A stretch of 64,000 nucleotides of DNA from Gammaproteobacteria bacterium (GCA_050485685.1 JBJHBW010000007.1:5950-69949); one strand, 5' to 3'. Positions 3,540 to 61,279 are shown, numbered from the stretch's first letter. Made by a program: numbers and translations. The notes: generated by a model from the letters alone, not told the origin.

Positions 3540-5645
3540 ATGAAAAAACGTCATTCAGATATCGGATCTGCAGCACGCCTGCTACCGATTGCCGCTGCAC
3601 TGCTACCCATCACTTCTGGCATCGCATTCGCTCAAGGCGGAGGCCGGTACCAGACGCCGGAGGCGTGGACTTTCGGCATCACTGCCGATACGCAATGGAC
3701 CATCACCCACAGCCTGGACTGGGACCCGGGCGATCCGTATTACGCGCATGTCAACCCGAACTACCGCGAGGAAAACCCGGATTACGTGAGTGTATCGACG
3801 CTACTCAAGCTCAACGAGCAGTTCATCGAGCACAACGTGAACTTCGTTGTGCAGTTGGGTGATCTGACCGACAGGGCGGGCAATGCCGCCATGTTTACCC
3901 ATGCCGCAGCCCGTCAGCCGCTGTATGACGCCGGTATCGGTTTCTTTCCGGTGCGCGGTAACCATGAAACGTATGGCAACCTCTACGGTCTGGATCCGGA
4001 TCCGGCCGATCCCGACCAGGTGTGGCCCGACATGAACATTCCCGCCTGGCACGCGGCGTTCCCGCAGACTCGCGGGCTGGGGCCGAATCTGGTCGGCGCC
4101 TACAACTTCCACGGCCCGGACATCGAGGCTCTTGAAGGGCTCAGCTACTCATTCGACTACGGTCCCGCAGGAAGCGATGCCCGATTCGTCTTCATGGACA
4201 TCGAACCCACGTCGTACTGGCTGCAGACACCGGATGTCCACCCGATCTACGGCCAGGGGTACATCTTCACGAACTTCTTCGCCTGGACAGTCTACAAGCA
4301 CGACGAAGACGTGATCGCCGGCAACGGGAATGTCATTCCGGCAGGGACGTGGTTTCGCGTGGACTCCAGCGGCAATCCGGCCACCAGCTGGGTGGATACC
4401 GCGACGGACGACACCGTGGAAGAAGGGAGCTTCACTTATGACGGTACTCAGTTCCGTCCCGGCGACCAGCAGGATTGGATCAATGACCGGCTGGAAGACC
4501 TACAGCGCCCTGCACACGCGTTTGTGCTCTCGCACAGAAATCTGATGGGCCAGAACCACATCAACACGGTATGGGGAAGCAATCCCGGCGTGTCGGCCGA
4601 CGATCAGAATGTGTTCTTCAGAAGTCTGCAGGAGAACAACGTCGGGTACATGCTCTCCGCCCACGATCACATGCACAACCGCTCAATCGTACGCAGCCCG
4701 GATGGCGAGTGGGCAGTCGAGCAGCTCATCGCTTCCTCATCCGATCCGAAGTTCTACACGCCGGCAAGCGGAGACCAGGCAGGGCAGCGATGGCGTGAGA
4801 CGCCGATTTCGCAGGAACTGGCGAATATCGGCTATTACGTTGTCACAGTGGACGGCGCACGACTGACGGTCGATTACTTTTCCGACAGCGTGGGACAGTT
4901 CGGCACGGACTACTGCTGGCCACAAGGTTTCGCAGGAGAGGACGGAAGCTGTGGCGATCCGCGATTCGACTCGGGTCCCGAGCAGATGGGCTCGCTATAC
5001 GTACCCGAGTTCGACTTCGTCTGGAAGGATCAGTGGGGATACGGCCTGAACGGACGGCGCTTCGTGGTGCCGCAGGGCGTCTCTTACGCCGGGGAAATCG
5101 TCGCTAATGGCGATGATGTCATCGAATATCCACGCGTACAGGACGAGTTCAACGGCACCCGTGCCGAAATTCTGTCCGGATTCAATGGCAGCGTGTCCAC
5201 AGATAATGTTCCTGATCAGCCCCGCCCGTTCGCGAAGGCAGTCAACACCGGATGGATGGCGAATCCGGAACCGCAGACGCTCAAGAGTGATGTCTTCTCC
5301 TTGTGGGGCATGGCGGAACTCGGAACTGCGGAGACAGACGTCTACGTGCTGTCCATGTCTTTCGTGTTCGATACCATGGTGCAACTCGGCGCCGGCGGCA
5401 TCGGGATTGCCACATATGTCGATGGCGAGTGGGTCAATGCCGTCAGCCAGAACTTCGGCGGAGAGAAAAACTTCGTCGTCGGCCCTTACGTGGAAGGCGT
5501 GCACGAGCTTGGCACGTATGGCGTCGATCCCGGCACACAGACTGCATGGGCTGTGCTGAACTACAACGCCGACTTCGCCGTGGCCCAAGGCATAGAGGCA
5601 GTACCTGGTCAACAGCGACGTAGTACCGGTAATCCGGGCAGGTAG
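3540..5645 (+). CDS. secreted calcineurin-like metallophosphoesterase, 701 aa with a large C-terminal extension
   Basis: Strong RBS (AAGGGGAGG) and a signal peptide (LLPIAAALLPITSGIAFAQG). Metallophosphoesterase motifs are present: VVQLGDLTDRAGN, VRGNHETYG and SAHDHMHNR. Confidence 0.8.
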   Translation: MKKRHSDIGSAARLLPIAAALLPITSGIAFAQGGGRYQTPEAWTFGITADTQWTITHSLDWDPGDPYYAHVNPNYREENPDYVSVSTLLKLNEQFIEHNVNFVVQLGDLTDRAGNAAMFTHAAARQPLYDAGIGFFPVRGNHETYGNLYGLDPDPADPDQVWPDMNIPAWHAAFPQTRGLGPNLVGAYNFHGPDIEALEGLSYSFDYGPAGSDARFVFMDIEPTSYWLQTPDVHPIYGQGYIFTNFFAWTVYKHDEDVIAGNGNVIPAGTWFRVDSSGNPATSWVDTATDDTVEEGSFTYDGTQFRPGDQQDWINDRLEDLQRPAHAFVLSHRNLMGQNHINTVWGSNPGVSADDQNVFFRSLQENNVGYMLSAHDHMHNRSIVRSPDGEWAVEQLIASSSDPKFYTPASGDQAGQRWRETPISQELANIGYYVVTVDGARLTVDYFSDSVGQFGTDYCWPQGFAGEDGSCGDPRFDSGPEQMGSLYVPEFDFVWKDQWGYGLNGRRFVVPQGVSYAGEIVANGDDVIEYPRVQDEFNGTRAEILSGFNGSVSTDNVPDQPRPFAKAVNTGWMANPEPQTLKSDVFSLWGMAELGTAETDVYVLSMSFVFDTMVQLGAGGIGIATYVDGEWVNAVSQNFGGEKNFVVGPYVEGVHELGTYGVDPGTQTAWAVLNYNADFAVAQGIEAVPGQQRRSTGNPGR

Positions 5646-5676
5646 CTCCGCAGGGCCTGCAAACAAGGCAGATGCA

Positions 5677-5721
5677 GCCCTGTAGAACGAAGTGAGCTTG
5701 CTGATTTTCGTTCTACAGGGC
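5677..5721 (+). terminator. perfect 15-bp stem hairpin (terminator-like or REP-like) downstream of the phosphoesterase gene
   Basis: GCCCTGTAGAACGAA (5677-5691) pairs perfectly with TTCGTTCTACAGGGC (5707-5721) around a 15-nt loop. It lies 32 nt after the stop at 5645 and is followed by CCTTTGCCGATTTT. The U-tract is not contiguous with the stem. Confidence 0.5.
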
Positions 5722-5809
5722 CCTTTGCCGATTTTAGAATGTGTACGGTCATTTCACACGCTACGGACCGTCAGAGGCGTACGGCGTGAATGAATCAGCG
5801 AGAAGAAAT

Positions 5810-6517
5810 ATGAAATCGACAGGATTACGCGTGACGTGCGCTGCTCTCCTTGGAGCCGTGCTTGCCGGCACTCAGGTCGCTGCTGACGTGGCTTCACCGA
5901 GCAATGCGACGGCCGCTCAAGCATCCCACGGCGCTGAATCAGCTTCATCAGGAGGGCACTCAGGCCACGTCCACCACGGCATGCATTCCGAGGTCGAGGC
6001 GCTGAGGGAGGCGATCTGGTATGCGTCGGCCGAAGGCAACCTCGCGCTCCTCGGGCGCCTGCTCAGGGACGAGTCGGTCGACGTGGACGATCTGGCGGTA
6101 GGACACTTCACCACCGGATTATGGATGGCATCGCAGCAGGGGCACGCCGACGTAGTCCATCTGCTGCTCGTGCGCGGCGCCAATGTCAATGCGACTGACT
6201 CCATCGATCGCCGTACGCCGCTGTTCCAGGCTGCACAGGCCGGCCACGCAGAGGTAGTTGGAATCCTGCTGGAGCACGGTGCAGACGTGGAGGCCCGCAG
6301 TGCCAGCACGGGTGCGACACCGCTTTTCGTGGCTTCGGCCCGAGGCCACGTTGAGGTGGTCCGGCTGTTGCTGGCGGCGGGCGCCGACGTCAATGTGAAG
6401 GCAGCGGCAGGCGACAGTGAGGATACGCCTCTGAGCATTGCGAGGGACAGAGGCCATGAGGATGTTGCGGAGCTTCTCGCAAGCTCGATCGCAGCAGCGG
6501 GTAGCCGTAGCCGCTGA
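5810..6517 (+). CDS. secreted ankyrin-repeat protein
   Basis: I start at ATG 5810 (MKSTGLRVTCAALLGAVLAGTQVAA signal peptide). At least four ANK repeats are visible (TGLWMASQQGHADVVHLLLVRGANVN; TPLFQAAQAGHAEVVGILLEHGADVE; TPLFVASARGHVEVVRLLLAAGADVN; TPLSIARDRGHEDVAELL). A His-rich stretch (SGGHSGHVHHGMHSE) follows the signal peptide. Confidence 0.8.
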   Translation: MKSTGLRVTCAALLGAVLAGTQVAADVASPSNATAAQASHGAESASSGGHSGHVHHGMHSEVEALREAIWYASAEGNLALLGRLLRDESVDVDDLAVGHFTTGLWMASQQGHADVVHLLLVRGANVNATDSIDRRTPLFQAAQAGHAEVVGILLEHGADVEARSASTGATPLFVASARGHVEVVRLLLAAGADVNVKAAAGDSEDTPLSIARDRGHEDVAELLASSIAAAGSRSR

Positions 6518-12800: not shown

Positions 12801-13012
12801 TGATGACCGCGATGACATTCATCATCGGTACGCTGCCGCTGGTGTTCGCAACCGGCGCCGGCGCCGCGAGTCGTCAGGCCATAGGCACGGTCGTGGTCGG
12901 CGGCATGATCGGCGCGAGCACGCTGGCATTGCTGTTCGTGCCTCCTGCCTACAAAGTGCTGGAGACGCTGTCATCGAGACGGGCAAGGAGCCGGCAGTCT
13001 GCCCAAGCATGA
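9887..13012 (+). CDS. RND multidrug efflux permease (AcrB/MexB family)
   Basis: 1041 aa with the canonical N-terminus [23 protein letters not shown], two large periplasmic loops and 12 TM segments. Confidence 0.95.
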
Positions 13013-13026
13013 ATCAGGATCAACGA

Positions 13027-13815
13027 ATGAACATATCAATACGAAAACTTCCCTTTCTGACCACGCTGATCGCGTACTGCGCCGCTTTTTTGCCCGGCCA
13101 TGCGCTCGGACAGACGGATGGCAGCGAGAACACAACCAGCGGTCTCCACCTTGAGCTTGAAACCGGCGCCGTTGCCTATGCACGCAACGATGTGCGCATC
13201 CCGAATGACGGCGGAACGCGGTTTGATCTGCGTGACCTTACCGGATCCGGACCCGAGGTTTTCGGCCGGCTGGCGCTGACATGGCGGCTCGATGACAGAC
13301 ATGCGCTGCGCTTTACCATCGCGCCGCTGCGAATCACCGGCAGCGGCGTACTCGACAGCGACGTAATGTTCGAGAATTCGGTCTTTCCGGCCGGCACGCC
13401 CACACAGGGCGTCTATCAGTTCAGCAACTACCGCGTCACCTACCGGCGCATGTTTGCGCCCGGCGAACACTGGCACTGGGGCATCGGTGGCGCGCTGTTC
13501 GTGCGAGATGCGGAAATCTCGCTGCGGCAGGGCGGACTTCGCGAGACCAACGACGATATCGGCCTGGTGCCGTTGCTGCATGTGTACGGTGAACGCCGCA
13601 TCGGCGACCGCACGGCACTGATTGTTGACATCGAAGGCGCCGGGGCCTCGCAGGGCCGCGCCGTGGACGCGTCGATTCGCGTGCAGCGCACGCTTGCCAA
13701 CGGCATGACCGTCAGCGCCGGCTACCGCGGCCTGGAAGGTGGCGCCGACAACGATGAACTCTATACATTCGCGTGGCTGAACTATGCGACCTTTGCGGTG
13801 GGTTGGCGGTTCTGA
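13027..13815 (+). CDS. small outer-membrane beta-barrel protein of unknown function (last gene of the RND operon)
   Basis: Within ORF 12451..13815 only the distal part looks real. ATG 13027 has an AGGA 8 nt upstream; the alternative ATG 13009 overlaps the RND stop as ATGA. It has a signal peptide (MNISIRKLPFLTTLIAYCAAFLPGHALG), alternating hydrophobic beta-strand patterns and a C-terminal aromatic residue (...FAVGWRF). Confidence 0.7.
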   Translation: MNISIRKLPFLTTLIAYCAAFLPGHALGQTDGSENTTSGLHLELETGAVAYARNDVRIPNDGGTRFDLRDLTGSGPEVFGRLALTWRLDDRHALRFTIAPLRITGSGVLDSDVMFENSVFPAGTPTQGVYQFSNYRVTYRRMFAPGEHWHWGIGGALFVRDAEISLRQGGLRETNDDIGLVPLLHVYGERRIGDRTALIVDIEGAGASQGRAVDASIRVQRTLANGMTVSAGYRGLEGGADNDELYTFAWLNYATFAVGWRF

Positions 13816-14949: not shown

Positions 14950-16116
14950 CTACCCCATCAGATGAACGACAGTCACGACGACCGCCGGAATGGCGAAATA
15001 CAGCAGCCCGACAAACAGTGGCGCGAAATAGCGCCGCCTGTAGGCAAGGTCGCCCATGTGCGTAGCGATCTTCAGCGGAATCCTCCGTATGTACGAAATC
15101 GGCCATATGATCAGAATACCAAGCACGTTGAACATCAGGTGCGCGAATGCGACGGTGATCGCAGTCGGGTTCGCGGTCGCCAGGGCCGCCAGAATCGCTG
15201 TCAGCGTGGTCCCCAGATTCGCGCCCAGGCTGTATGGATAGATCTGCGTCAGTCGTATGAGACCGGCGGCGGCCAGCGGAATCGCCAGCGCGGTGGGCAC
15301 GGAGCTGGTCTGCACCGCGAACGTGAGCAGCAGCCCGAAGAACATTGCCCGACCCGACGTGCGGAACAGATGTGTATCAAAAAAGTGTTCCAGTCGCGTC
15401 AGCATCAGGCTGCGCAGCAGCTTGACGATTACGATCAGCGAGCCGTACGTCAGTACCAGCGCGAAAATCAGCAGCGCCACCGGATTCTGGAACACCAGAC
15501 GTGCCAGCAGCAGTACCGTAGGCTCCGTCGCGGCTTTCAGCGGATTGGCCAGCCTCATGCCACCGATATCCTGGAAGGCGGCGCCGAGAAAAACGGCGAG
15601 TGAGGAAACCGCACCGGTCAACAGCTCGATGGGCAGCAGTATCAGCACACCGATGACGTTGAATGCGCAGTGCACCGACGCCGCGGCGAAGCCGCGCTGC
15701 AGTTCCAGAGGCCGGCGCAGATGACCCAGCGACACCAGCATGCTGGTGATTGTCGTGCCGATATTCGCGCCCATGATCATCGGAATGGCGCCTTCCACGG
15801 AAATGGCACCGCCGGCGACCATGCCGACGATGATGGACGTGGAAGTGGAGGAACTCTGCACCAGCGAGGTCGCGAGCACACCCAGGAACAGGCCGAGCAC
15901 CGCGTTCTCGGTCGTCTTCAGCACCGCTTCGGCGAATTCGCGTCCGAACAGCCCGAACGCATGCCCCAGCGCACCGATGGCAACGATGAACAGATACAGG
16001 CTCGCAATGATGCCGAGCACCCTGGCATACGCGAGCCAGCGGTCCCGGTGCGTGACGACAGCGGACACAATCAACCCGTGGCAGAACCCCCGCACGCATT
16101 GTCGATGAGATCGCAT
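14950..16116 (-). CDS. Na+/phosphate cotransporter family protein (NptA-like)
   Basis: Duplicated Na/Pi-cotransporter signature (LVQSSSTSTSIIVGMV and AVQTSSVPTALAIPL) in a polytopic membrane protein. The start is uncertain: I use Met 16116, and the ORF-track start at 16380 adds an Arg/Cys-rich extension that does not look coding. Confidence 0.8.
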   Translation of the reverse strand: MRSHRQCVRGFCHGLIVSAVVTHRDRWLAYARVLGIIASLYLFIVAIGALGHAFGLFGREFAEAVLKTTENAVLGLFLGVLATSLVQSSSTSTSIIVGMVAGGAISVEGAIPMIMGANIGTTITSMLVSLGHLRRPLELQRGFAAASVHCAFNVIGVLILLPIELLTGAVSSLAVFLGAAFQDIGGMRLANPLKAATEPTVLLLARLVFQNPVALLIFALVLTYGSLIVIVKLLRSLMLTRLEHFFDTHLFRTSGRAMFFGLLLTFAVQTSSVPTALAIPLAAAGLIRLTQIYPYSLGANLGTTLTAILAALATANPTAITVAFAHLMFNVLGILIIWPISYIRRIPLKIATHMGDLAYRRRYFAPLFVGLLYFAIPAVVVTVVHLMG

Positions 16117-16294
16117 CCCGCCGCAACGCGGCCTGTTGCAACGCAACGCATCAACGCAACGCTCAGCCAGGCGGCCACTGGCACCGTGCACGGATGAACT
16201 GTCACGAAAAATACGTAGAATCGACAATGTACTCACGCGGCACCATCGCTCAGAGTGGTACCGGCAGCGTTCGCAGCGGGACAAGGGGACATGA

Positions 16295-17275
16295 ATGCGC
16301 GAAAGAGTCGCGGCCCGGGGATTTCCCGGCACTCGGTGGATTTTCGGCGCAGTGCTGCTCCTTGCTGTGTCCCTGTTCAATCCGTTTGCAGTGTCCGCTC
16401 TTGCGCAGAACCCCGGCGATGAGCACGCGGCTGCCTACGCCGGCATTGGCACCCAGGGCTGCCTGATCTGCCACGGTGCGACGGCCGGGCGCCCGGCCAC
16501 CGGGATCCTTCAGAGTCCTCACGCCGTCAGCGCCGCCGCCGGCTCGCCTTTTGCCGATGGACGTCATCAGTGCGAGGACTGTCACGGGCCAAGCGAAGCG
16601 CATCTGAGTGTTATCGACGGGGTCAGGCCCCCGCCGTCAGTGGCATTCAGTGCGCACGAGAGTGCAGCAGTGAAGGATCAGATGTGTCTTGGCTGCCATC
16701 AGCGCGAGGCCGGCGTGCACTGGAGCATCAGCGCCCACAGCTTCGGCGAGGTAGCATGTACCGATTGTCACGTATCTCATGTCGCGCAGGATCCGGTGCT
16801 GACGGCTGCCGGCGAGGCCAACGTCTGCTTCGCATGCCATGAACGTGAACGCGCTGAATTCTTCCGGCGCTCCGCGCATCCTGTCAGCGCCGGAATGATG
16901 CAGTGCACCGACTGTCATACCCCGCACGGCAGCGATGCGCCGGGCATGCTGAGTCGCGCCACCGTCAACGAGACCTGCTACGACTGCCATGCCGAGAAGC
17001 GCGGACCGTTTCTCTGGGAACACCAGCCGGTTCGCGAGGATTGCACGGCCTGTCATGTGCCGCATGGTTCAAATCATGGCGACCTGCTGGTCGCGCGTAC
17101 GCCGTTCCTCTGTCAGCAATGCCATCTTGCCGCCTTTCATCCCAGCACGGCCCTGAGCGGCCAGAACGTGCCGCCACAGGGTGCCTCACACCTGCTGCTG
17201 TCGCAGAACTGCACGAACTGCCACAGCCAGGTGCATGGCTCCAATCATCCGTCCGGTCCGGGGCTGACGCGATGA
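16295..17275 (+). CDS. periplasmic decahaem c-type cytochrome (MtrA/DmsE/MtoA/PioA family)
   Basis: RBS AAGGGGA, a signal peptide (IFGAVLLLAVSLFNPFAVSALA) and exactly ten CXXCH motifs (CLICH, CEDCH, CLGCH, CTDCH, CFACH, CTDCH, CYDCH, CTACH, CQQCH, CTNCH) in 326 aa. Confidence 0.9.
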   Translation: MRERVAARGFPGTRWIFGAVLLLAVSLFNPFAVSALAQNPGDEHAAAYAGIGTQGCLICHGATAGRPATGILQSPHAVSAAAGSPFADGRHQCEDCHGPSEAHLSVIDGVRPPPSVAFSAHESAAVKDQMCLGCHQREAGVHWSISAHSFGEVACTDCHVSHVAQDPVLTAAGEANVCFACHERERAEFFRRSAHPVSAGMMQCTDCHTPHGSDAPGMLSRATVNETCYDCHAEKRGPFLWEHQPVREDCTACHVPHGSNHGDLLVARTPFLCQQCHLAAFHPSTALSGQNVPPQGASHLLLSQNCTNCHSQVHGSNHPSGPGLTR

Positions 17276-19554
17276 CAGGCGCCGGAATACCCAGCCCCGC
17301 GAGCGCGACACCAGCGACGCCGCCGATACCACGCGCCCGGAGGCTGGCACCGCTTGCCGGTGCGATAGCACTGACGCTCACAGCCATCACGACCGCGCAG
17401 GCTCAATCCGGCAACGATCGTGAGACGCAGCGTGAGGTCACGGTGGGCCTGGGCTGGCTGGATGAGGGTGCTTTCCGATACGGACGCTATACGGGACTCG
17501 TCAGCGCCGGATTACAGCCAAGGCTCGAATTCCGCATGCGCTCCATGCCGACCTGGGACGGAGACGACACGTTCTACTGGTCGGCGCAGGGCACACGTCT
17601 GGGGCAGGACTCGCGCCGCCTCAACCTCGAGGTCGGCGACGTCGGCAGGCAGCGCCTAACGCTGGAGCTGAGGCAGATTCCGCGTTACACCAGCGACAGC
17701 TCGCGTACGCCGTTTCAGGATGTGAACAGCGCATTCCTGAGCCTGCCTGCGGACTGGGAGACCACCGGCAATACGACCGCAAACCTGCCGTCACTCGGCA
17801 CGGCCCTGGATGACGTGAATCTGCGCGAGCGGCGCACGCGCTTCACACTGGGTTACCAGCGCGAACTCGACGCCCGGTGGCATTTCAACGTGAACTACCG
17901 GCACGAGCAGAAAGATGGCCGCCGACTGCTTGGCGGCACAACCGGCAGCACCGGCGGCAACGCCCGCGCAGCACAGCTGCCGGTACCGATAGACTTCACG
18001 ACCGAAGTCCTGGACCTGGGCATCACACGCACAACCGACCGCAGCAGCGCCGGTTTTTCCTATACAGGCTCTTTTTTCCGCAACGCGCATTCATCCGTGA
18101 GCTGGCAGGTACCTTTCGGACCGCATCCTCAGTGGGCCGATGGCGTGGGCTACCCGAACGGAATCGGCCGCCTGTCGCTGGAGCCGGATAACAGTTTCCA
18201 TCAGCTCGGTTTCGCCGCCGGTCATGCATTCAGCAGCACGCTGCGAATGAACCTGGGCCTGTCGTACGGGCGCATGATCCAGGATCAGGCCCTGCTGCCG
18301 TATACCGTGAATCCTGCGCTCGATGTGTCGACAGCACTGCCGCGCAGTTCACTGGACGGCCGCGTAGACCTGACGCGGTTCAATGTCGGCATCAGCGCAC
18401 GGCCGAGCCCGCGCCTGCAGGTCAATGCCACATACCGGTTCGATGACCGCAACGACCAGACTCCGCGTGAGGCCTGGCAGCTGATTCGCAGCGACTCCGA
18501 AGACCAGCGGGTCGTGGAACTGGCGCGCCTTAACCGGCCCTACAGCCTGCGCGAGCACAGCCTGCGTGCCGACGTCGGCTATCGGGTCAGTCGCGGCATT
18601 CGCCTGCAGGGCGGCTATCGCTACACCGATCAGAGTCGCGACTACTCTGAAGTCGACAGCGTTGAAGAACACCGCTACAGCATGGGCGTGCGTTTCAGTA
18701 CGCTGGATATCCTCGCACTGTCGCTGGACCTGCTGCACGCACGCCGCAGCATCGGTGACTACGTGGGTAACCGGCCACTGATCGAGACCCGTGTGCCGGG
18801 GACAGTGGGAGAGGATGACTTCGAGAATCATCCGTTGCTGCGCAAGTACTATCTCGCCGATCGCGATCGCGACGGCGCGCGGGTGCGCGCGGACATCCCG
18901 CTGGGCAGCGGTGCCAGTATCGGCATGTCGGCTGCTTACCATCGTGATGACTATCGCAACTCCGTGTTCGGCCTCACACGCGCCAGCATGCGTACCGCGA
19001 CACTGGATGGCAGCGTTTATCCGGCTGCCGACCTGCGCCTGACGGCGTTCGTCACGCTGGACCGCTACACGAACGAACAGGCCGGCCGGTCCTTCAACGC
19101 AACACCGGCGCAGCAGCAGGACCCGGAGCGCGACTGGTGGGTCAGCGGCCGTGACCGCTTCACGACCACCGGGCTGTCGGTGGGCATGGACAGCCTTGAG
19201 CAGCGCTGGGCCTGGCTGGGCGAACGTGCCGAAGGCCGCTCCGTGGCAGCAGGGCTTGATGTGGTCCACGCCGACTCGCGCGGCGCACTGAAAGTGCGCT
19301 CAGGTCCCGCGCTGACTACGTCCGATCTGCCGCCGCTGCGCACCCGCCTGAATTTCTACCGGCTGCACGCGAGCTACCCGCTGCGCAATGATGCACAGCT
19401 TCGGTTCGCACTCGAGCACGAGCGATATCGCAGCCGCGATTTCGGCTACGACAGCGTGGCCCCGGATACGATCCCTAACGTCCTGTCGTCGGGACATGAA
19501 AGCCCGCGATACCGCGTAAACTGGGTGGTCGTGTCCTACGCGGCACGTTTCTGA
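17272..19554 (+). CDS. MtrB/PioB-family decahaem-associated outer-membrane beta-barrel protein
   Basis: Within ORF 16903..19554 I start at ATG 17272, which overlaps the cytochrome stop (ATGA). It has a signal peptide (LAPLAGAIALTLTAITTAQA), about 730 aa of beta-strand-patterned sequence and ends ...VVSYAARF. The gene order, cytochrome then porin, is typical of MtrAB/PioAB/MtoAB. Confidence 0.85.
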   Translation: MTGAGIPSPASATPATPPIPRARRLAPLAGAIALTLTAITTAQAQSGNDRETQREVTVGLGWLDEGAFRYGRYTGLVSAGLQPRLEFRMRSMPTWDGDDTFYWSAQGTRLGQDSRRLNLEVGDVGRQRLTLELRQIPRYTSDSSRTPFQDVNSAFLSLPADWETTGNTTANLPSLGTALDDVNLRERRTRFTLGYQRELDARWHFNVNYRHEQKDGRRLLGGTTGSTGGNARAAQLPVPIDFTTEVLDLGITRTTDRSSAGFSYTGSFFRNAHSSVSWQVPFGPHPQWADGVGYPNGIGRLSLEPDNSFHQLGFAAGHAFSSTLRMNLGLSYGRMIQDQALLPYTVNPALDVSTALPRSSLDGRVDLTRFNVGISARPSPRLQVNATYRFDDRNDQTPREAWQLIRSDSEDQRVVELARLNRPYSLREHSLRADVGYRVSRGIRLQGGYRYTDQSRDYSEVDSVEEHRYSMGVRFSTLDILALSLDLLHARRSIGDYVGNRPLIETRVPGTVGEDDFENHPLLRKYYLADRDRDGARVRADIPLGSGASIGMSAAYHRDDYRNSVFGLTRASMRTATLDGSVYPAADLRLTAFVTLDRYTNEQAGRSFNATPAQQQDPERDWWVSGRDRFTTTGLSVGMDSLEQRWAWLGERAEGRSVAAGLDVVHADSRGALKVRSGPALTTSDLPPLRTRLNFYRLHASYPLRNDAQLRFALEHERYRSRDFGYDSVAPDTIPNVLSSGHESPRYRVNWVVVSYAARF

Positions 19555-19628
19555 GGAAGAAAACGAGCCGCCGGGCCGACCGACGCACTTTCGCGCCACG
19601 CAGGATCCCGAGGAGGCAATAACAGAAA

Positions 19629-20966
19629 ATGGTTCGACATCGGGCAACAATGCTGCTCTGGCTGATCGCGGTTGTGCCGGGAGCAATCGCGATCGCGTAT
19701 CTGCGTGGCCCAGACCTGCAAAGCCCGGGCGCCATGCTGAATTTCGCGGGAAGGGTGACCGGTATCGCGGGCCTCGCTTTCCTGCTCGTGGCCGCGATAC
19801 TGAGCTGCCGGGTGCCGGGATTTGACCGGCCTTTCGGCGGGCTGACCAAGCTCTGGCAGTCCCACCACAAACTCGGCGGCGTCGCGTTCCTGTTTCTGCT
19901 CGCGCACCCTCTCCTGCTGGCGATCGGCGCCGCAGAAGCCTCGCTGACGGCAGCTTCGCAGACGCTGATTCCGACCACGCTGAACTGGCCCGTGATCATG
20001 GGCTGGATCGCGCTGCTCGCGATGATGGTGTTCCTCGCACCCAGCTTCAAATTCTTCGGCGAACCCGACTACCAGCGATGGCGTAATGTCCATCGACTGG
20101 CAGCACTGGCAGTGGTCACCGGTCTCGCGCATACGTTTTATCTCGCGCGCACGATACCGGATCCGCTGAACACACTGATCTGGCTGCTGCTGGCGCTGGC
20201 TGCGGTGGCCGCAGTCTCATATCGGCTTGTGTTCTCACGACGCATCGGTCGACTTCGCTATACCGTTGCCGAAGTTGCCAGACCCGCCAACAACGTCGTT
20301 GAACTTGCCCTTGCACCGCAGGGCGCGGCACTGCGCCACGAGGCCGGGCAGTTTGTCTATCTCACGCCGTTCGATCGCACCCTGAAAGCGGGGTATGCAG
20401 AAGAACACCCCTACACCCTGTCATCCGCGCCCGGCGAAGTTCATCTGCGCATTGCGATCAAGGATCTCGGCGATGCCAGCCGCGCCATTCAGCAGATCGC
20501 CACGGGCAGCGAAGTGGGCGTGGAAGGTCCGTATGGCTATTTCTTCAAGTCCCCGGAACCACGCACGCCGGAGCTGTGGATTGCGGGCGGCATAGGCATT
20601 ACACCGTTCCTCGGCCGCGCCCGGCACCTGGCAGCGCTGGCTGAGGAGCGCGGAAGCATCGGCCGGACTGCAGCCGAAGCCGACATCATTCTCGTCTACT
20701 GCGTACAGGATGAAGGTCGCCAGCTGTTCGACGACGAATTCCTGGAGTTGACTCGCGTCGTTCCGGGATTCAGGCTGGTCATGCACTATTTCTATCGCGA
20801 AGGGCCACTGTCGCACGCATTCCTGAACGAACACTGTCCGCGACTGTCCGAACGGGAAACCTACATATGCGGCCCGCAACCGCTGGTTGATGCGGCACGA
20901 GGCGCGTTGCTTGCCGGTGGTACGGGCCGCGAACGTATTCATACTGAGGAATTCAATCTCCTGTGA
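19629..20966 (+). CDS. NOX/FRE-type transmembrane ferric-reductase-domain flavocytochrome b with FAD/NAD(P)H-binding domain
   Basis: RBS GAGGAGG. Two His pairs at 13-residue spacing sit in TM helices (HHKLGGVAFLFLLAH; HRLAALAVVTGLAH). It has the FAD motif HPYTLSS and the NAD(P)H motif IAGGIGITPFLG. Confidence 0.85.
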   Translation: MVRHRATMLLWLIAVVPGAIAIAYLRGPDLQSPGAMLNFAGRVTGIAGLAFLLVAAILSCRVPGFDRPFGGLTKLWQSHHKLGGVAFLFLLAHPLLLAIGAAEASLTAASQTLIPTTLNWPVIMGWIALLAMMVFLAPSFKFFGEPDYQRWRNVHRLAALAVVTGLAHTFYLARTIPDPLNTLIWLLLALAAVAAVSYRLVFSRRIGRLRYTVAEVARPANNVVELALAPQGAALRHEAGQFVYLTPFDRTLKAGYAEEHPYTLSSAPGEVHLRIAIKDLGDASRAIQQIATGSEVGVEGPYGYFFKSPEPRTPELWIAGGIGITPFLGRARHLAALAEERGSIGRTAAEADIILVYCVQDEGRQLFDDEFLELTRVVPGFRLVMHYFYREGPLSHAFLNEHCPRLSERETYICGPQPLVDAARGALLAGGTGRERIHTEEFNLL

Positions 20967-20990
20967 GGGGATTGCTGCAGAGAGGCTGAC

Positions 20991-21350
20991 ATGAAGAAAG
21001 TGACTTTTGCGGCGTTTGTCGCGTTCTGGGCCGGTATTGTCGTCATTGTCGGCGTTGCGCAGCTTGCATCGGACCGGGCTGCTGCCGATGAGGACGCCCT
21101 TCCGGTCATCACACTGGAACAACTCGCCGAACACGATCATGACGAGTCGTGCTGGATGGCCATCGAGGGCCGGGTCTACGACTTCACCGATTACGTTCCG
21201 CAACATCCGACGCCGCCGGCGATCATGCTGGCATGGTGCGGTCGTGAAGCGACCGAAGGTATGCGCACCAAAGGCTACGGTCGCGATCACAGCCCCGCCG
21301 CCTGGGCCATGATGGACGACTACGTGGTCGGCATCCTTGCCGGAGACTGA
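20991..21350 (+). CDS. membrane-anchored cytochrome b5-like haem-binding domain protein
   Basis: N-terminal MKK plus a TM (VTFAAFVAFWAGIVVIVGVAQLA), then a b5-like domain (LEQLAEHDHDESCWMAIEGRVYDFTDYVPQHP...). It starts 24 nt after the FRE-like gene. Confidence 0.75.
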   Translation: MKKVTFAAFVAFWAGIVVIVGVAQLASDRAAADEDALPVITLEQLAEHDHDESCWMAIEGRVYDFTDYVPQHPTPPAIMLAWCGREATEGMRTKGYGRDHSPAAWAMMDDYVVGILAGD

Positions 21351-21353
21351 GCC

Positions 21354-21992
21354 CTGCCGCGAAACCCTCGCGACGCGGACGCCATCCGGGAGGATTACGC
21401 GCGCCTGGCCGCCGACTACGAACGGCGCTGGGCCGCTTTCAATTCGGCCACCCGCCACTGGGTTTACGCGCACTGGCCAGTGCTGCCCAACGACGCCACT
21501 GTGCTCGATATCGCCTGCGGCACCGGGGCCTGGCTTCAGTCCCTTGCCGCTCACTCGCCGGGATTGCGCCTGGTTGGCCTGGACCTGAGTCCCGCCCAAC
21601 TCGCACAAGCCAGGCGCAGGTTGCCCGACGCTACGCTGATCGAGGCCGATGCCGACCTGCCACCGTTCGTTGCTGACGCCTTCGATGTGATCTGTTCGCT
21701 TAACGTGCTGCATCACCTGACCGACCCCCGGGCGCACCTGCGCATGCTGGTGACCCTGGCACGACCCGGAGCCAGCGTGTTTGTCGTCACCTTTTCACGC
21801 GACCGCACACCGGCGACACGAGTCGCCAGCCGCTGGTTGCTGAGACGGCAACCGACCTGGCGACAGGTGCTGTCCATCGCCGCGTTACGTGACATGATCA
21901 GCGCGGAACCAGGCCTTGAAGTCACAGACGAGGCGGAGTTCCCCGCCGGGCGTTTCTGGTATCTGCAGGCCTGGCAGCTCAACGTGACATAA
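21354..21992 (+). CDS. class I SAM-dependent methyltransferase (start codon unresolved)
   Basis: SAM motif I is VLDIACGTGAW, followed by LVGLDLSPAQL and DVICSLNVLHHL. The first canonical start is GTG 21480. However, the same frame reads DAIREDYARLAADYERRWAAFNSATRHWVYAHWP from 21351, immediately after the b5 TGA. That looks like a genuine methyltransferase N-terminus, and only CTG 21354 is available there as a start. Confidence 0.7.
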   Translation: MPRNPRDADAIREDYARLAADYERRWAAFNSATRHWVYAHWPVLPNDATVLDIACGTGAWLQSLAAHSPGLRLVGLDLSPAQLAQARRRLPDATLIEADADLPPFVADAFDVICSLNVLHHLTDPRAHLRMLVTLARPGASVFVVTFSRDRTPATRVASRWLLRRQPTWRQVLSIAALRDMISAEPGLEVTDEAEFPAGRFWYLQAWQLNVT

Positions 21993-22006
21993 GGAGCAGG
22001 CAACAC

Positions 22007-22384
22007 ATGCACGAACTGCTTGAAGCCTGGGTGGCATGGATAGTCCCCGCGATCCAGGCCGTGGGCGTGGTCATCGTCCTGTGGGGCGTCATCGAAGCGC
22101 TGTTGGCACTGGCACGTCGTGCACTTCAGCGCTTGACGGGCACCCACCCGCGCACCGGGCTTGGCGCCATACGCATCTCGATTGGCCGCAAGATGGTGCT
22201 TTCACTGGAGTTTTTCATTGCCAGCGATATCATTCAGACGGTCGTGATCCCGACCTGGGAGTCGCTGGGCATGCTGGCCGGCATTGTCGCGATCCGCACC
22301 GTGATCGCCTATTTCATCGAGTACGAGATGCGCCAGGGCAGCCCGGATAGGGATGGCGAGGGCGGCGAAAGATCCGGGAAATAG
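22007..22384 (+). CDS. DUF1622-like small membrane protein
   Basis: RBS AAGGAG. 125 aa with TM segments (IVPAIQAVGVVIVLWGVIEALLALA; MVLSLEFFIASDIIQTVV). It starts 14 nt after the methyltransferase gene. Confidence 0.65.
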   Translation: MHELLEAWVAWIVPAIQAVGVVIVLWGVIEALLALARRALQRLTGTHPRTGLGAIRISIGRKMVLSLEFFIASDIIQTVVIPTWESLGMLAGIVAIRTVIAYFIEYEMRQGSPDRDGEGGERSGK

Positions 22385-22441
22385 CCCCGGCTGTGATTGC
22401 CCGACTTGGCCACCGTGCCGCAATGTGGTATCTATAGCGCC

Positions 22442-22525
22442 ATGATTGCGTCCCATACCCGTTTTTACTTTTGGTACTACGGTTTTCCGATGCCGCTGGC
22501 GGAGGAAGGGATGCGGTCGGCCTGA
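22442..22525 (+). CDS. candidate aromatic-amino-acid attenuation leader peptide (27 aa: MIASHTRFYFWYYGFPMPLAEEGMRSA)
   Basis: A short ORF whose codons 8-15 read F-Y-F-W-Y-Y-G-F (22463-22486). It lies upstream of a terminator/antiterminator pair and the DAHP synthase gene. I see no clear Shine-Dalgarno sequence before ATG 22442. Confidence 0.55.
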   Translation: MIASHTRFYFWYYGFPMPLAEEGMRSA

Positions 22526-22551
22526 CAGGAACCGAACGAGCATTTCGAAAA

Positions 22552-22580
22552 AGCCGCCAGCGTCCCTGGCGGCTTTTTTT
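22552..22580 (+). terminator. intrinsic terminator (attenuator) in the DAHP synthase 5' leader
   Basis: AGCCGCCAG (22552-22560) pairs with CTGGCGGCT (22566-22574) around the loop CGTCC, followed by a T7 run (22574-22580). It lies 46 nt upstream of the aro gene ATG. The upstream CGCTGGCGG (22494-22502) can pair with the left arm (22554-22562) as an antiterminator. Confidence 0.75.
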
Positions 22581-22626
22581 ATGTCGCAGGGATTCCCGGG
22601 GCCGATCGACAACAGGAGACTGACCA

Positions 22627-23703
22627 ATGCCCCCGCATACTGATGATCTGAGGATCAGCGAATTCGAGCCGCTGGATCCGCCAGCCGTCGTGATCGACGA
22701 GCTGCCCTGCGAGGAGCAGGTGTCCGCGACTGTCGCCGACGCTCGGCGCACGCTGCATCACATTCTGCATGGCGAGGACGATCGCGTCGCTGTCGTGATC
22801 GGTCCGTGTTCCATACATGATCCGAAGGCGGCGATGGAATACGCCCGCAGGCTGCTGCCGCTGCGCGAAGAGCTCAGTGACGCGCTTGAGATCGTGATGC
22901 GCGTGTATTTCGAGAAGCCGCGCACCACGGTGGGCTGGAAAGGCCTGATCAACGATCCGGATCTGGATGGAAGCTACCGTATCAACAAGGGTCTGCGCCT
23001 GGCGCGAAGGCTCCTGCGGGATATCAACGCGATGGGCCTGCCCGCCGGTTGTGAATATCTCGATGTTATCTCGCCGCAGTACGTTTCCGATCTCGTCGCC
23101 TGGGGCGCAATCGGTGCGCGTACCACCGAGAGCCAGGTGCACCGCGAAATGGCATCGGGTCTGTCCTGTCCGGTAGGCTTCAAGAACGGTACCGGCGGAA
23201 CGATTCGCATCGCGGTGGATGCGATCCGTGCCGCTTCACAACCACATCATTTCCTGGCCGTGATGAAGGACGGCCGATGTGCGGTCGCATCCACGACCGG
23301 CAATCCCGACGTGCATGTGATCCTGCGCGGCGGGCGCAAGCCGAACTACGACGCCGCCAGCGTTGCGGAAACCTGCCATCTGCTGGAGGAAGCCGGCATG
23401 CCAGCGCGCGTGATGATCGATGCCAGCCATGCGAATAGCGGCAAGAAGCCGGAAAACCAGCCGGCGGTAATCGACGATATCGCCCGCCAGATCGAGAACG
23501 GCGAACAGCGAATCGTGGGCGTCATGATCGAGAGCCACCTGGTCGGTGGTCGTCAGGATCTGAGCCCCGGCAAACCGCTGGTATACGGCCAGAGCATTAC
23601 CGACGGGTGTCTGGGATGGGATGACTCGGTTGCGACTCTGCACAGACTGGCGTCCGCGGTGCGCAGCAGACGTGAGGGTGTCGCGAAAGACGCCGCCGCC
23701 TGA
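22627..23703 (+). CDS. aroG: 3-deoxy-7-phosphoheptulonate (DAHP) synthase, class I (AroF/G/H type)
   Basis: RBS AGGAG. 358 aa with the conserved block YFEKPRTTVGWKGLINDPDLDGS and typical length and termini. Isoenzyme specificity cannot be assigned. Confidence 0.9.
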   Translation: MPPHTDDLRISEFEPLDPPAVVIDELPCEEQVSATVADARRTLHHILHGEDDRVAVVIGPCSIHDPKAAMEYARRLLPLREELSDALEIVMRVYFEKPRTTVGWKGLINDPDLDGSYRINKGLRLARRLLRDINAMGLPAGCEYLDVISPQYVSDLVAWGAIGARTTESQVHREMASGLSCPVGFKNGTGGTIRIAVDAIRAASQPHHFLAVMKDGRCAVASTTGNPDVHVILRGGRKPNYDAASVAETCHLLEEAGMPARVMIDASHANSGKKPENQPAVIDDIARQIENGEQRIVGVMIESHLVGGRQDLSPGKPLVYGQSITDGCLGWDDSVATLHRLASAVRSRREGVAKDAAA

Positions 23704-59484: not shown

Positions 59485-59560
<76 letters not shown>

Positions 59561-59576
59561 CTGACTGTATAAAGCG

Positions 59577-60767
<1,191 letters not shown>

Positions 60768-60896
60768 AGGAACTACTCCTGCCGGGACCCGCTACCGGCT
60801 CATCCGGTGCTGCTGGCTGCGCGGGTCGCGCGTTTGTTGCTGTCAATTATTCTGTTTCAATCCAATCCGGCATCAGAATCAACTGACCCGAACAAC

Positions 60897-60972
<76 letters not shown>

Positions 60973-61076
60973 GGGAAGCCGTTGGCCGTGGCTCCGAGCA
61001 CTGCTCCGGGCATAGCGCCAGGAGATCCCCTGTTGAAATCTCGCTGTCATCCTCTGCACGTCAGATTCCAATTGTC

Positions 61077-61150
61077 TGGAGCGGGTGAGCGGAATCGAAC
61101 CGCCATCATCAGCTTGGAAGGCTGAGGTTCTACCGTTGAACTACACCCGC
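61077..61150 (-). tRNA. tRNA-Gly (anticodon TCC), CCA end encoded
   Basis: Reverse complement: GCGGGTG-TA-GTTC-AACGGTA-GAAC-C-TCAGC-CTTCCAA-GCTGA-TGAT-GGCGG-TTCGATT-CCGCT-CACCCGC-T-CCA. Confidence 0.93.
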
Positions 61151-61194
61151 CTTCTTCCAAGCCCCCTGCAGTAAACCCGGAACCCCGTCCTAAG

Positions 61195-61279
61195 TGGTGG
61201 AGGGGGTAGGATTCGAACCTACGAAGGCATAGCCAGCAGATTTACAGTCTGCCCCCGTTGACCGCTTGGGTACCCCTCC
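61195..61279 (-). tRNA. tRNA-Tyr (anticodon GTA), long variable arm, CCA end encoded
   Basis: The reverse complement is GGAGGGGTACCCAAGCGGTCAACGGGGGCAGACTGTAAATCTGCTGGCTATGCCTTCGTAGGTTCGAATCCTACCCCCTCCACCA, 85 nt, with the anticodon loop CTGTAAA. Confidence 0.92.

Follow-up and report, generated by a model that had tools for sequence, protein, structure and literature searches.

A candidate NAD(P)H-fed MtrAB conduit: conserved linkage of a NOX-fold flavocytochrome and a cytochrome b5 to mtrAB in Gammaproteobacteria

Described electron conduits and the mtrA–mtrB–FRE–b5 locus

All MtrAB, MtoAB and PioAB conduits characterised so far connect, to our knowledge, either with the quinone pool or with carriers of photosynthesis or respiration. 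In the MtrCAB and MtrAB systems of Shewanella (with CymA, STC and FccA), electrons enter from the quinol pool via CymA, are carried over the periplasm by a small one-electron carrier that is a multihaem cytochrome c, and reach the surface cytochrome MtrC. The MtoAB–MtoD–CymA system of Sideroxydans and the PioABC system of Rhodopseudomonas likewise combine an MtrC-less MtrAB-type pair with the gene of a small periplasmic carrier, a monohaem cytochrome c or a HiPIP, and conduct electrons inward to quinone-linked or photosynthetic acceptors. Here we describe a locus in a 64 000-nucleotide stretch of a gammaproteobacterial contig (GCA_050485685.1, JBJHBW010000007.1:5950-69949; the whole stretch is called the window below), in which mtrA and mtrB, with homologous products, the same order and the same overlapping stop and start as in Shewanella, are followed by the genes for a ferric-reductase-type flavocytochrome, FRE, and a cytochrome b5, b5. 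Like Shewanella MtrAB, the module needs a small periplasmic one-electron carrier, but the carrier here would be a b-type cytochrome and the proposed input is NAD(P)H, and neither CymA nor MtrC is encoded in the window or in the MtrB clade to which it belongs; unlike the Mto and Pio systems, it would act as an NAD(P)H-oxidising exporter. We consider it fairly probable, on the strength of sequence and synteny, that mtrA, mtrB, FRE and b5 encode a quinone-independent export of electrons across the whole Gram-negative envelope.

The individual parts of this module have relatives in several described systems. FRE shares with SpNOX of Streptococcus pneumoniae and the eukaryotic NOX/DUOX/FRE family the fold, four histidines in a 13/12 spacing, the FAD and NADPH motifs, a C-terminal aromatic residue and short outer loops, although it is only about 20% identical to SpNOX and its FAD motif reads HPYT rather than HPFT; no characterised NOX has a translationally coupled protein acceptor, the part that b5 would play for FRE. 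MsrQ, a ferric-reductase-domain dihaem b membrane protein, also passes electrons to a dedicated periplasmic partner, but MsrQ–MsrP (YedZ–YedY) has no FAD/NAD(P)H domain and uses quinols or a separate flavin reductase, whereas FRE has its own domain, and the partner of MsrQ is the molybdoenzyme MsrP, whereas that of FRE would be a b5 feeding an outer-membrane wire. The flavin-based extracellular electron transfer of Listeria (Ndh2) and the reductive iron uptake of eukaryotes by Fre1/FRO2 resemble the proposed module in concept alone, as dedicated NAD(P)H oxidation towards extracellular acceptors outside the main respiratory chain: the Listeria pathway has a dedicated quinone and its components Ndh2, EetAB and PplA are not homologous to those described here, and Fre1/FRO2 work at one membrane only and have no wire through an outer membrane.

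Ferric-reductase-like proteins beside porin–cytochrome genes have been reported by He et al. 2017 (PMC5566968), whose PCC3 and PCC4 modules adjoin an FRD-like membrane protein in which HX13H occurs twice, on TM3 and on TM5; these proteins have no flavin/NAD(P)H domain and were read as quinone-active, the porin–cytochrome is not MtrAB and there is no b5. A preprint on Candidate Phyla Radiation (CPR) bacteria (bioRxiv 10.1101/2021.11.17.468889) describes pFre–cytochrome b5(MY) operons, proposes a membrane complex and states that this co-localisation is unseen outside CPR, which is contradicted by the FRE–b5 pairs that we find in at least 154 gammaproteobacterial species; unlike the present module, the CPR pairs have a b5 of a MAPR-like clade, hosts with no outer membrane and no MtrAB. 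Baker et al., in their broad mtrCAB survey, made mtrC a requirement and mention neither ferric reductase nor NADH, and one survey lists Marinimicrobium merely as having pio/mto homologues. Full-text literature searches returned no description of a NOX-type FRE and b5 with MtrAB, in agreement with the preliminary description of this locus, which had been made from the sequence alone and whose author knew of no system of such composition.

Identities, fold and cofactor ligands of the four proteins

MtrA has exactly ten CXXCH sites in 326 residues by direct motif count, as first described, and zero CX3-4CH variants; its signal peptide ends SALA/QN, and it matches Pfam Paired_CXXCH_1 (7.8e-36) and passes the NCBIfam model TIGR03508 for DmsE-family decahaem proteins (264.3 bits against a cut-off of 192.2). 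The stop codon of mtrA overlaps the start of mtrB in the sequence ATGA (17272-17275). Translation of mtrB gives the expected 760-residue porin partner ending VSYAARF, with phenylalanine as the C-terminal residue, and this protein matches PF11854 MtrB_PioB over its full length (positions 6-635 of 635, 1.1e-129) and scores 401 bits on NCBIfam TIGR03509 (cut-off 240). With the Shewanella baltica MtrCAB structure (6R2Q) as reference, MtrA aligns with chain A over residues 47-324 (3.5e-68) and MtrB with chain B (4.7e-56). Every open reading frame (ORF) of the 64-kb window other than the decahaem gene has at most one CXXCH, and there is no surface decahaem gene of the MtrC/OmcA type in the window; a CymA/NapC-type tetrahaem quinol dehydrogenase is absent both from the window and from an annotated syntenic relative (L003).

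FRE combines PF01794 Ferric_reduct, PF08022 FAD_binding_8 and PF00175 NAD_binding_1 in one chain, all above their cut-offs, while in a scan of NCBIfam no model reached its cut-off for FRE or for b5. The four motifs quoted in the preliminary description are all present, HHKLGGVAFLFLLAH at residue 79, HRLAALAVVTGLAH at 155, HPYTLSS at 260 and GGIGITPF at 320, the last two being the FAD and NAD(P)H motifs of a cytoplasmic FNR-like domain that also contains CGP. The 13-residue spacing given there for both histidine pairs holds for the first (H79-x13-H93) but not for the second, which is H155-x12-H168, and the two together make the NOX-type 13/12 pattern. Invariant in 24 homologues (53-78% identity) are the four histidines, H80, HPYT, GGxGxTPF, CGP and the C-terminal Phe442. 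By sequence the closest solved relative is SpNOX (2e-16), whose H69 and H83 align with H79 and H93; from this alignment and the ligand numbering in the SpNOX structure paper, H79 and H155 would bind the inner haem, and H93 and H168 the outer haem. An AlphaFold2 model (pLDDT 90.1, pTM 0.85) has six transmembrane helices, cytoplasmic N- and C-termini and short periplasmic loops (residues 24-32, 102-119 and 173-179), and its best match in the PDB is SpNOX 8QTA (TM-score 0.77/0.85), followed by DUOX1, NOX2 and NOX5. As judged by both sequence and model, FRE is a NOX-fold flavocytochrome b.

Inspection of the FRE sequence, which was not systematic, found no histidine at four residues past His93, the position that we take to be that of the oxygen-centre histidine in eukaryotic NOX enzymes. 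The oxygen centre of the eukaryotic type, which lies near the outer haem, includes a haem propionate together with one arginine and two histidines; SpNOX lacks the canonical site and reduces O2 in vitro. In SpNOX the short loops expose the outer haem, the enzyme passes electrons straight to cytochrome c, and its physiological acceptor may be something other than O2 (PMC11564096, PMC5676040). Hundreds of close homologues of FRE occur in Marinimicrobium, Kineobactrum, Haliea, Halioglobus, Wenzhouxiangella and other Gammaproteobacteria. There was no natural FRE–b5 fusion among the homologues listed (FRE 414-460 residues; b5 115-134 residues), and no MsrP-like gene adjoins FRE among the ORFs of the window or in L003.

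The 119-residue b5 protein begins MKKVTFAAFVAFWAG and has the cytochrome b5 domain previously assigned to it (PF00173, 8e-20), preceded by MKK, a hydrophobic helix (residues 4-23) and an acidic Ala/Pro-rich tether (about 24-39). Its closest solved relative is the Ectothiorhodospira vacuolata cytochrome b558 (PDB 1CXY; 1.9e-28, about 58% identity), with which both haem histidines and both cysteines align, and on this comparison b5 is an orthologue of that exported protein. All 79 FRE-linked b5 proteins have H48, C54, W55, H72, P73, C83, G84 and H100; the haem ligands lie in His72-Pro73 and His100-Ser101, the serine being replaced by threonine in five of the 79, and the cysteine pair presumably forms a disulfide in 1CXY. 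A classical signal peptide, with ...TPATA immediately ahead of NETEA at its cleavage site, is present in the Ectothiorhodospira b558 precursors, one of which shares 96% identity with the 1CXY query fragment; judged from the alignment offset, this site fits the first residues of the crystallised chain. The b5 domain family is therefore exported, and the arrangement of the FRE-linked proteins, with MKK inside and the acidic linker outside, agrees with export of b5; the periplasmic location that had been proposed for its domain thus gains support from the cleavable signal peptide of its orthologue, and the cysteine pair is invariant.

The b558 gene lies beside pnp with no FRE within 8-10 kb and encodes an ordinary cleavable signal peptide, whereas the FRE-linked b5 proteins have a conserved helix and a variable acidic tether. 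The helix (consensus MKKxxFAAF(I/V)AFWAS) is longer and has no conserved AXA site, the linker comprises 14-33 residues rich in Ala, Pro, Glu and Asp, and mean column conservation is 0.62 in the helix, 0.35 in the linker and 0.76 in the domain. Such conservation is more readily explained by an anchor that stays in the protein, and may dock on FRE, than by a signal peptide that is removed; cleaved or anchored, the b5 domain is exported. In Ectothiorhodospira the b558 genes are solitary (L164, 1126-1485; L165/L166, 10001-10399), beside pnp/rpsO, with a glutathione peroxidase gene in L164. A FRE partner for the E. vacuolata cytochrome was looked for and rejected, there being no ferric-reductase gene within 8-10 kb in two Ectothiorhodospira contexts.

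Linkage in relatives, the MtrB clade and the layout of the locus

Relatives were scanned with one genome per species, and the FRE–b5 pair was found in at least 154 gammaproteobacterial species-level genomes; of these 154 relatives, 80 loci were kept for analysis and compared by tblastn and clustering of all ORFs. The b5 gene lies directly 3' of FRE in every locus having downstream sequence, and 54 of 78 loci have a 4-nt overlap between the FRE stop and the b5 start. The mtrAB genes are near FRE–b5 in 45 of the 80 loci, and in 31 of the 46 (67%) with adequate flanks, defined as at least 3.5 kb upstream and 4.5 kb downstream. They occur in three arrangements (arrowheads give orientation): mtrAB>FRE>b5, as in the window (18 loci), FRE>b5>mtrAB (16 loci) and FRE>b5><mtrBA (11 loci, four of them looser at 0.8-6.8 kb). 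The junctions are short: the mtrB–FRE gap is between -11 and +26 nt in 13 of the 18 loci with the order of the window, where it is 74 nt, the b5–mtrA gap is -8 to +123 nt, and the convergent stops are 1-48 nt apart. Lack of synteny in relatives had been named beforehand as a result that would count against the module; the data clearly speak otherwise, FRE and b5 being adjacent wherever flanking sequence is available, with mtrAB adjoining them in two-thirds of the well-flanked loci and in several orders.

In four lineage contexts, loci at one and the same chromosomal position differ in whether mtrAB stands directly beside FRE–b5: Wenzhouxiangella group A (GSDH>FRE>b5>[mtrBA<]ADI<), Wenzhouxiangella group B (lysS<prfB<FRE>b5>[mtrAB> or mtrBA<]ADI<), Marinimicrobium and its relatives (beta-CASP>[mtrAB>]FRE>b5, with mtrAB missing in L054) and the pair L081 versus L018. 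Among annotated contexts, a metagenome-assembled genome (MAG) with 77% FRE identity has the same six genes and flanks as the window, Marinimicrobium alkaliphilum has mtrA–mtrB–FRE–b5 alone and Kineobactrum salinum has FRE–b5 alone. The flanking genes are core chromosomal ones (aroG, trpS and the rpoA region in the syntenic relative), and the hosts, according to record titles, come mostly from saline, soda-lake and marine sediment sources.

The reverse test started from MtrB. A metagenome scan with the MtrB alignment gave 80 loci, 25-36% identical to the window MtrB and by their identifiers mostly soil, rhizosphere and sediment contigs, of which only three (L085, L105 and L128) had anything similar: a convergent FRE–b5 in L085, a b5 fragment 5' of mtrA at the contig edge in L105, and in L128 the reductase fragment described below. 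FRE–b5 was present in one of the 25 control loci with at least 2 kb on both sides. Extra cytochromes with three or more haems, including 10-haem proteins of 750-1000 residues encoded 5' of mtrA and 4-haem proteins of about 209 residues, accompany 30 of the 41 control loci of at least 7 kb (73%), compared with one of the 41 tight FRE-linked loci (L065, 4-haem). The preliminary description had held that the decahaem/porin pair was coupled neither to CymA/NapC nor to MtrC, and this is borne out both in the 64-kb window and across the tightly linked MtrB clade.

A neighbour-joining tree of 120 MtrBs places every tight FRE-linked sequence, whichever of the three gene orders it comes from, together with the MtrBs of metagenome loci L085 and L105 in one clade that includes the window MtrB; a second deep clade (L017, L021, L034, L060 and L073) is wholly FRE-linked. 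The sole unlinked MtrB of the FRE-linked clade, that of L099, branches near the base of one subclade, with FRE–b5 absent within 8 kb and a 4-haem gene (about 209 residues, 5224-5850) 5' of mtrA, which would fit an exchange of a CymA-like input for FRE–b5 in the rest of the clade. The pattern is one of replacement, in which a single MtrAB lineage would have had its usual cytochrome partners replaced by FRE–b5. The loosely linked MtrBs (L053, L067, L071 and L078) sit among ordinary clusters in the tree. The fragment in L128 (6614-7153, minus strand, cut by the contig end) is FNR-like and 29% identical to FRE residues 257-444; it converges with the gene of an MtrB from another clade at a distance of about 50 nt, no b5 intervening, and may represent an independent reductase–MtrAB association.

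Other genes recur beside FRE–b5. In Wenzhouxiangella a pyrroloquinoline quinone (PQQ)-dependent glucose/sorbosone dehydrogenase gene (GSDH; PF07995, 4.6e-125) lies directly 5' of FRE on the same strand, usually with a gap of 0-6 nt or an overlap (L009, L020, L023, L028, L030-L033, L036, L037, L039, L042, L046, L047 and L063). A GSDH–FRE–b5 operon is likely in this genus, so that b5 may have a periplasmic dehydrogenase as a second electron source besides FRE. A P1B ATPase of the copper type, bearing HMA domains, is found near FRE–b5 in L012, L016, L027, L054, L057, L058, L067, L071, L078 and L082, in Marinimicrobium and in Wenzhouxiangellaceae/Lysobacterales, and a P2A-type cation ATPase of about 910 residues, Ca2+-like, in L017, L060, L073, L070 and L081 (Cellvibrionales, Porticoccaceae), its gene being 3 nt 5' of FRE on the same strand in L060 and L073. 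A recurrent copper ATPase neighbour was dropped as a candidate, the single-linkage cluster behind it having mixed the P1B copper-type with the P2A cation-type proteins.

A plus-strand scan of positions 15900-22800 gave no promoter-like or terminator-like site of note, no sigma-70-like site and no terminator-like site between mtrB and FRE. In 81 module upstream regions the scores for a Fur box match the background, only L010 reaching 15/19 and the window having none, and the reductive iron mobilisation that had been suggested as a role is therefore left with no support. Consensus scans for CRP, PhoB, Zur, LexA, OxyR half-site, CueR, IscR and NsrR showed no enrichment. Only an FNR/CRP-type box (TTGAT-N4-ATCAA, at least 9/10) is enriched, being found in 11 of the 81 module upstream regions and in six of 175 control upstream regions (Fisher p = 0.005, uncorrected for nine motifs, with loci that are not independent and controls taken from the same loci). 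The box occurs in seven of the 18 mtrAB>FRE loci and is perfect in Marinimicrobium locisalis (-115) and a Wenzhouxiangella MAG (-169); loci with it include L016 (-115 from mtrA), L050 (-169 from FRE), L010, L012, L014, L022, L035 and L081. The best match in the window is 7/10, the background level; the boxes hint that some lineages express the module when O2 is limiting, but give no such hint for the window locus.

The ORF list confirms the six ORFs first described, all on the plus strand (Table 1), together with the 74-nt mtrB–FRE and 24-nt FRE–b5 spacers. The left boundary of the intergenic region 5' of mtrA is approximate, since the Na/Pi-cotransporter ORF on the minus strand is over-extended relative to its 372-residue homologue in L003. 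Pfam matches confirm the domain assignments of the methyltransferase and DUF1622 proteins. The spacers of 0-14 nt that had been given for these two genes stand in so far as the methyltransferase frame is open immediately after the b5 stop, but the 0-nt spacer requires a non-canonical start, because the frame has no ATG, GTG or TTG between 21351 and 21480. Read from 21351, it keeps the conserved N-terminal DYARLAADYE region (IREDYARLAADYERRW), and the closest relatives start at the equivalent place with TTG (L005) or GTG (L004); a CTG or ATC start, read-through of the b5 stop codon and a recently damaged start are all possible. Among the scanned loci, L004 and L005, from the closest relatives, are the only ones in which the methyltransferase accompanies the module, and the DUF1622 gene adjoins it only in L004, L005 and L006; both genes are lineage-specific and lie outside the conserved module.

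Table 1. Features of the mtrA–mtrB–FRE–b5 locus, in window coordinates.
Feature	Position	Strand	Matches and remarks
Divergent intergenic region 5' of mtrA	16070..16294	+	AAGGGGA, Shine-Dalgarno-like, at 16283-16289
MtrA/DmsE-family periplasmic decahaem cytochrome c, 326 aa	16295..17275	+	TIGR03508, 6R2Q_A, Paired_CXXCH_1
MtrB/PioB-family outer-membrane beta-barrel sheath, 760 aa	17272..19554	+	PF11854, TIGR03509, 6R2Q_B
mtrB–FRE spacer, 74 nt	19555..19628	+	GAGGAGG at about 19610-19616
NOX-fold flavocytochrome b (FRE), 445 aa	19629..20966	+	Ferric_reduct, FAD_binding_8, NAD_binding_1
Periplasmic cytochrome b5 (predicted export), bacterial b558 type, 119 aa	20991..21350	+	Cyt-b5 domain, 1CXY match
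Class I S-adenosylmethionine (SAM) methyltransferase, accessory, lineage-specific	21351..21992	+	Pfam; first canonical start 21480
DUF1622 small membrane protein, accessory, lineage-specific	22007..22384	+	PF07784, 1.9e-22

Elsewhere in the window, a 278-residue ORF (12979-13815, plus strand) directly 3' of a resistance-nodulation-division (RND) transporter gene has a signal-peptide-like start and ends ...GWRF; it resembles an outer-membrane beta-barrel at its C-terminus and has no Pfam match. A scan of the window with Rfam found solely four tRNA genes (59488-61279, minus strand), far downstream, and no riboswitch or other known RNA element near the module.

The proposed electron route, its alternatives and its meaning

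The analyses above show what the four components are, the NOX fold, the conserved cofactor ligands, an exported b5 family, gene coupling of the operon kind and a synteny specific to one MtrB clade; each electron-transfer step, the direction of flow and the acceptor we infer from sequence and synteny. FRE would oxidise NAD(P)H at its cytoplasmic FNR-like domain and send electrons from FAD to the inner haem b (His79/His155) and on to the outer haem b (His93/His168), crossing the inner membrane. The outer haem would then reduce the co-translated periplasmic b5, from which electrons would pass to the periplasmic end of the decahaem MtrA, either directly after release of b5 from the membrane or via a further step, and MtrA, threaded through MtrB, would deliver them to an acceptor at or outside the cell surface, candidates being Fe(III) or Cu(II) chelates, O2 and extracellular redox enzymes. 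FRE–b5 would be the invariant core, working also alone on periplasmic acceptors, and MtrAB its commonest add-on, carrying the route through the outer membrane. Outward flow is suggested by the chemistry of the NOX family and by thermodynamics, reduction of NAD(P)+ from b5 or Fe(II) against the membrane potential not being credible. Export of the NOX type leaves protons inside and carries negative charge out and would therefore dissipate the proton-motive force; with the proton-motive force consumed, the module would be an assimilatory, detoxifying or redox-balancing outlet rather than a respiratory chain. That FRE–b5 feeds MtrAB seems to us rather more than an even proposition.

Several observations weigh against this route. 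If the potential of b5 lay near 0 mV, the protein might donate poorly to the low-potential haems of MtrA. In the window no promoter or regulator site was identified, and the mtrB–FRE gap is 74 nt. Of the 46 well-flanked FRE–b5 loci, 15 have no mtrAB within 10 kb (for example, those of Kineobactrum salinum and Wenzhouxiangella limi); because mtrAB is missing beside a third of the loci, MtrAB cannot be obligatory, and FRE–b5 would there have another acceptor and a periplasmic job of its own. In L053, FRE–b5 lies beside a full mtrCAB cluster with a genuine MtrC (PF22113), and in L067, L071 and L078 (also in L082) two dihaem c-type cytochromes and a three-gene Sdh/Frd-like complex (Fer2_3/Fer4, FAD_binding_2 with Succ_DH_flav_C, and Sdh_cyt; about 12-18 kb in locus coordinates) lie between FRE–b5 and the convergent mtrBA; a quinone-linked input may coexist in L053, L067, L071 and L078. 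Geometry is a real weakness. In Shewanella the periplasm measures 235 ± 37 Å across and soluble shuttles have to serve MtrAB, and direct transfer from an anchored b5 to MtrA is doubtful because its tether has only 14-33 residues to bridge a periplasm of some 20 nm; short of its release, or of a local narrowing of the envelope, the tethered protein probably cannot reach MtrA. The complete conduit from NAD(P)H to the cell surface that the preliminary description put forward is thus supported in its conserved gene linkage but not in the reach of the b5 tether.

These observations bear on the strongest of the alternatives, that FRE–b5 is an autonomous periplasmic reductase (compare MsrQ with its partner MsrP, and FoxB-type membrane reductases with siderophores), with MtrAB co-regulated but fed mainly by an unlinked quinol dehydrogenase, b5 being a minor donor at most. 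The loci with no mtrAB, those with full mtrCAB or Sdh-like/dihaem modules and the short tether all fit it, as do the Wenzhouxiangella operon with a periplasmic PQQ-dependent dehydrogenase and the Ectothiorhodospira b558, which works with no FRE neighbour. It explains less well why the tight MtrB clade has no MtrC- or CymA-like genes, present in 73% of the controls, why the mtrB–FRE and b5–mtrA junctions are near zero length, and why linkage is kept over three gene orders with repeated gain and loss exactly at the FRE–b5 site, and we regard it as unlikely.

A true NADPH oxidase, making superoxide or peroxide in the periplasm or at the surface for signalling, for Mn/Fe redox cycling or for attack on prey or competitors, with O2 accepting electrons at the FRE outer haem, at b5 or at an exposed MtrA haem, would suit the NOX fold and 13/12 histidine spacing of FRE, the in vitro reduction of O2 by SpNOX and hosts that are, from record titles, mostly aerobic marine or soda-lake heterotrophs. 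Reduction of O2, however, needs neither a translationally coupled b5 nor a decahaem wire, FRE does not have the histidine four residues past His93, and the FNR-type boxes of some relatives point to expression when O2 is scarce; we find this reading distinctly improbable.

MtrC-less MtrAB is typical of the Fe(II)-oxidising Mto and Pio systems, and Marinimicrobium is listed as carrying pio/mto homologues, so that an inward module of the MtoAB/PioAB kind might be imagined, in which MtrAB oxidises extracellular Fe(II) or another donor and b5 shuttles electrons to the inner membrane. This is very improbable: reduction of NAD(P)+ (-320 mV) from Fe(II) or b5 via a NOX-type enzyme would be strongly uphill and against the membrane potential, and the strict FRE–b5 pairing would have no role. 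We know of NOX-family enzymes described as working outward only. Fortuitous adjacency, of unrelated neighbours or by hitch-hiking on a mobile island, is barely credible in spite of the 74-nt mtrB–FRE gap in the window and a co-transcription that is only presumed, as mtrAB adjoins FRE–b5 in 31 of 46 well-flanked loci where by our estimate chance would put it into roughly 0.5% of 20-kb neighbourhoods (genome of some 4 Mb), the association recurs in several gene orders and has an MtrB clade of its own, and the locus has an unremarkable GC content and core chromosomal flanks.

Returning to export through FRE, b5 and MtrAB, the parts all belong to known families and the porin–cytochrome principle is known; what appears to be new, with strong support from comparative genomics, is the wiring, in which a NOX-fold NAD(P)H enzyme and a b558-type b5 stand in place of CymA and MtrC. 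The evidence leaves evenly poised the wider claim that this is the first NAD(P)H-driven, quinone-independent conduit across two membranes, that b5 is the first natural protein acceptor of a bacterial NOX homologue and that an MtrAB clade has exchanged its CymA and MtrC. We know of no role assigned to the bacterial cytochrome b5/b558 fold, and its linkage to FRE gives it a functional context. The acceptor of the bacterial NOX enzymes is explicitly open in the SpNOX literature (PMC5676040, PMC11564096); as FRE has in b5 a genetically coupled candidate acceptor, the question becomes directly testable. Cultured pairs with and without mtrAB exist in Marinimicrobium agarilyticum and Marinimicrobium sp. 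C2-29, and in Wenzhouxiangella sediminis and W. limi.

If the proposed route is true, an NAD(P)H-fed MtrAB would follow a different bioenergetic logic, one of electron disposal or assimilatory reduction and not of respiration, and the mtrAB hits in genomes and metagenomes, which FeGenie and several surveys score as iron oxidation or reduction, would need to be re-read. A quinone-independent wire of four genes from NAD(P)H to the cell surface would also be attractive for bioelectrochemical engineering. For the organisms themselves, it would mean that at least 150 marine, saline and soda-lake gammaproteobacterial species, mostly aerobic heterotrophs, reduce extracellular substrates from their cytoplasmic nucleotide pool, and these substrates could be Fe(III) or Cu(II) for uptake, electron sinks once O2 is exhausted, or secreted redox enzymes.

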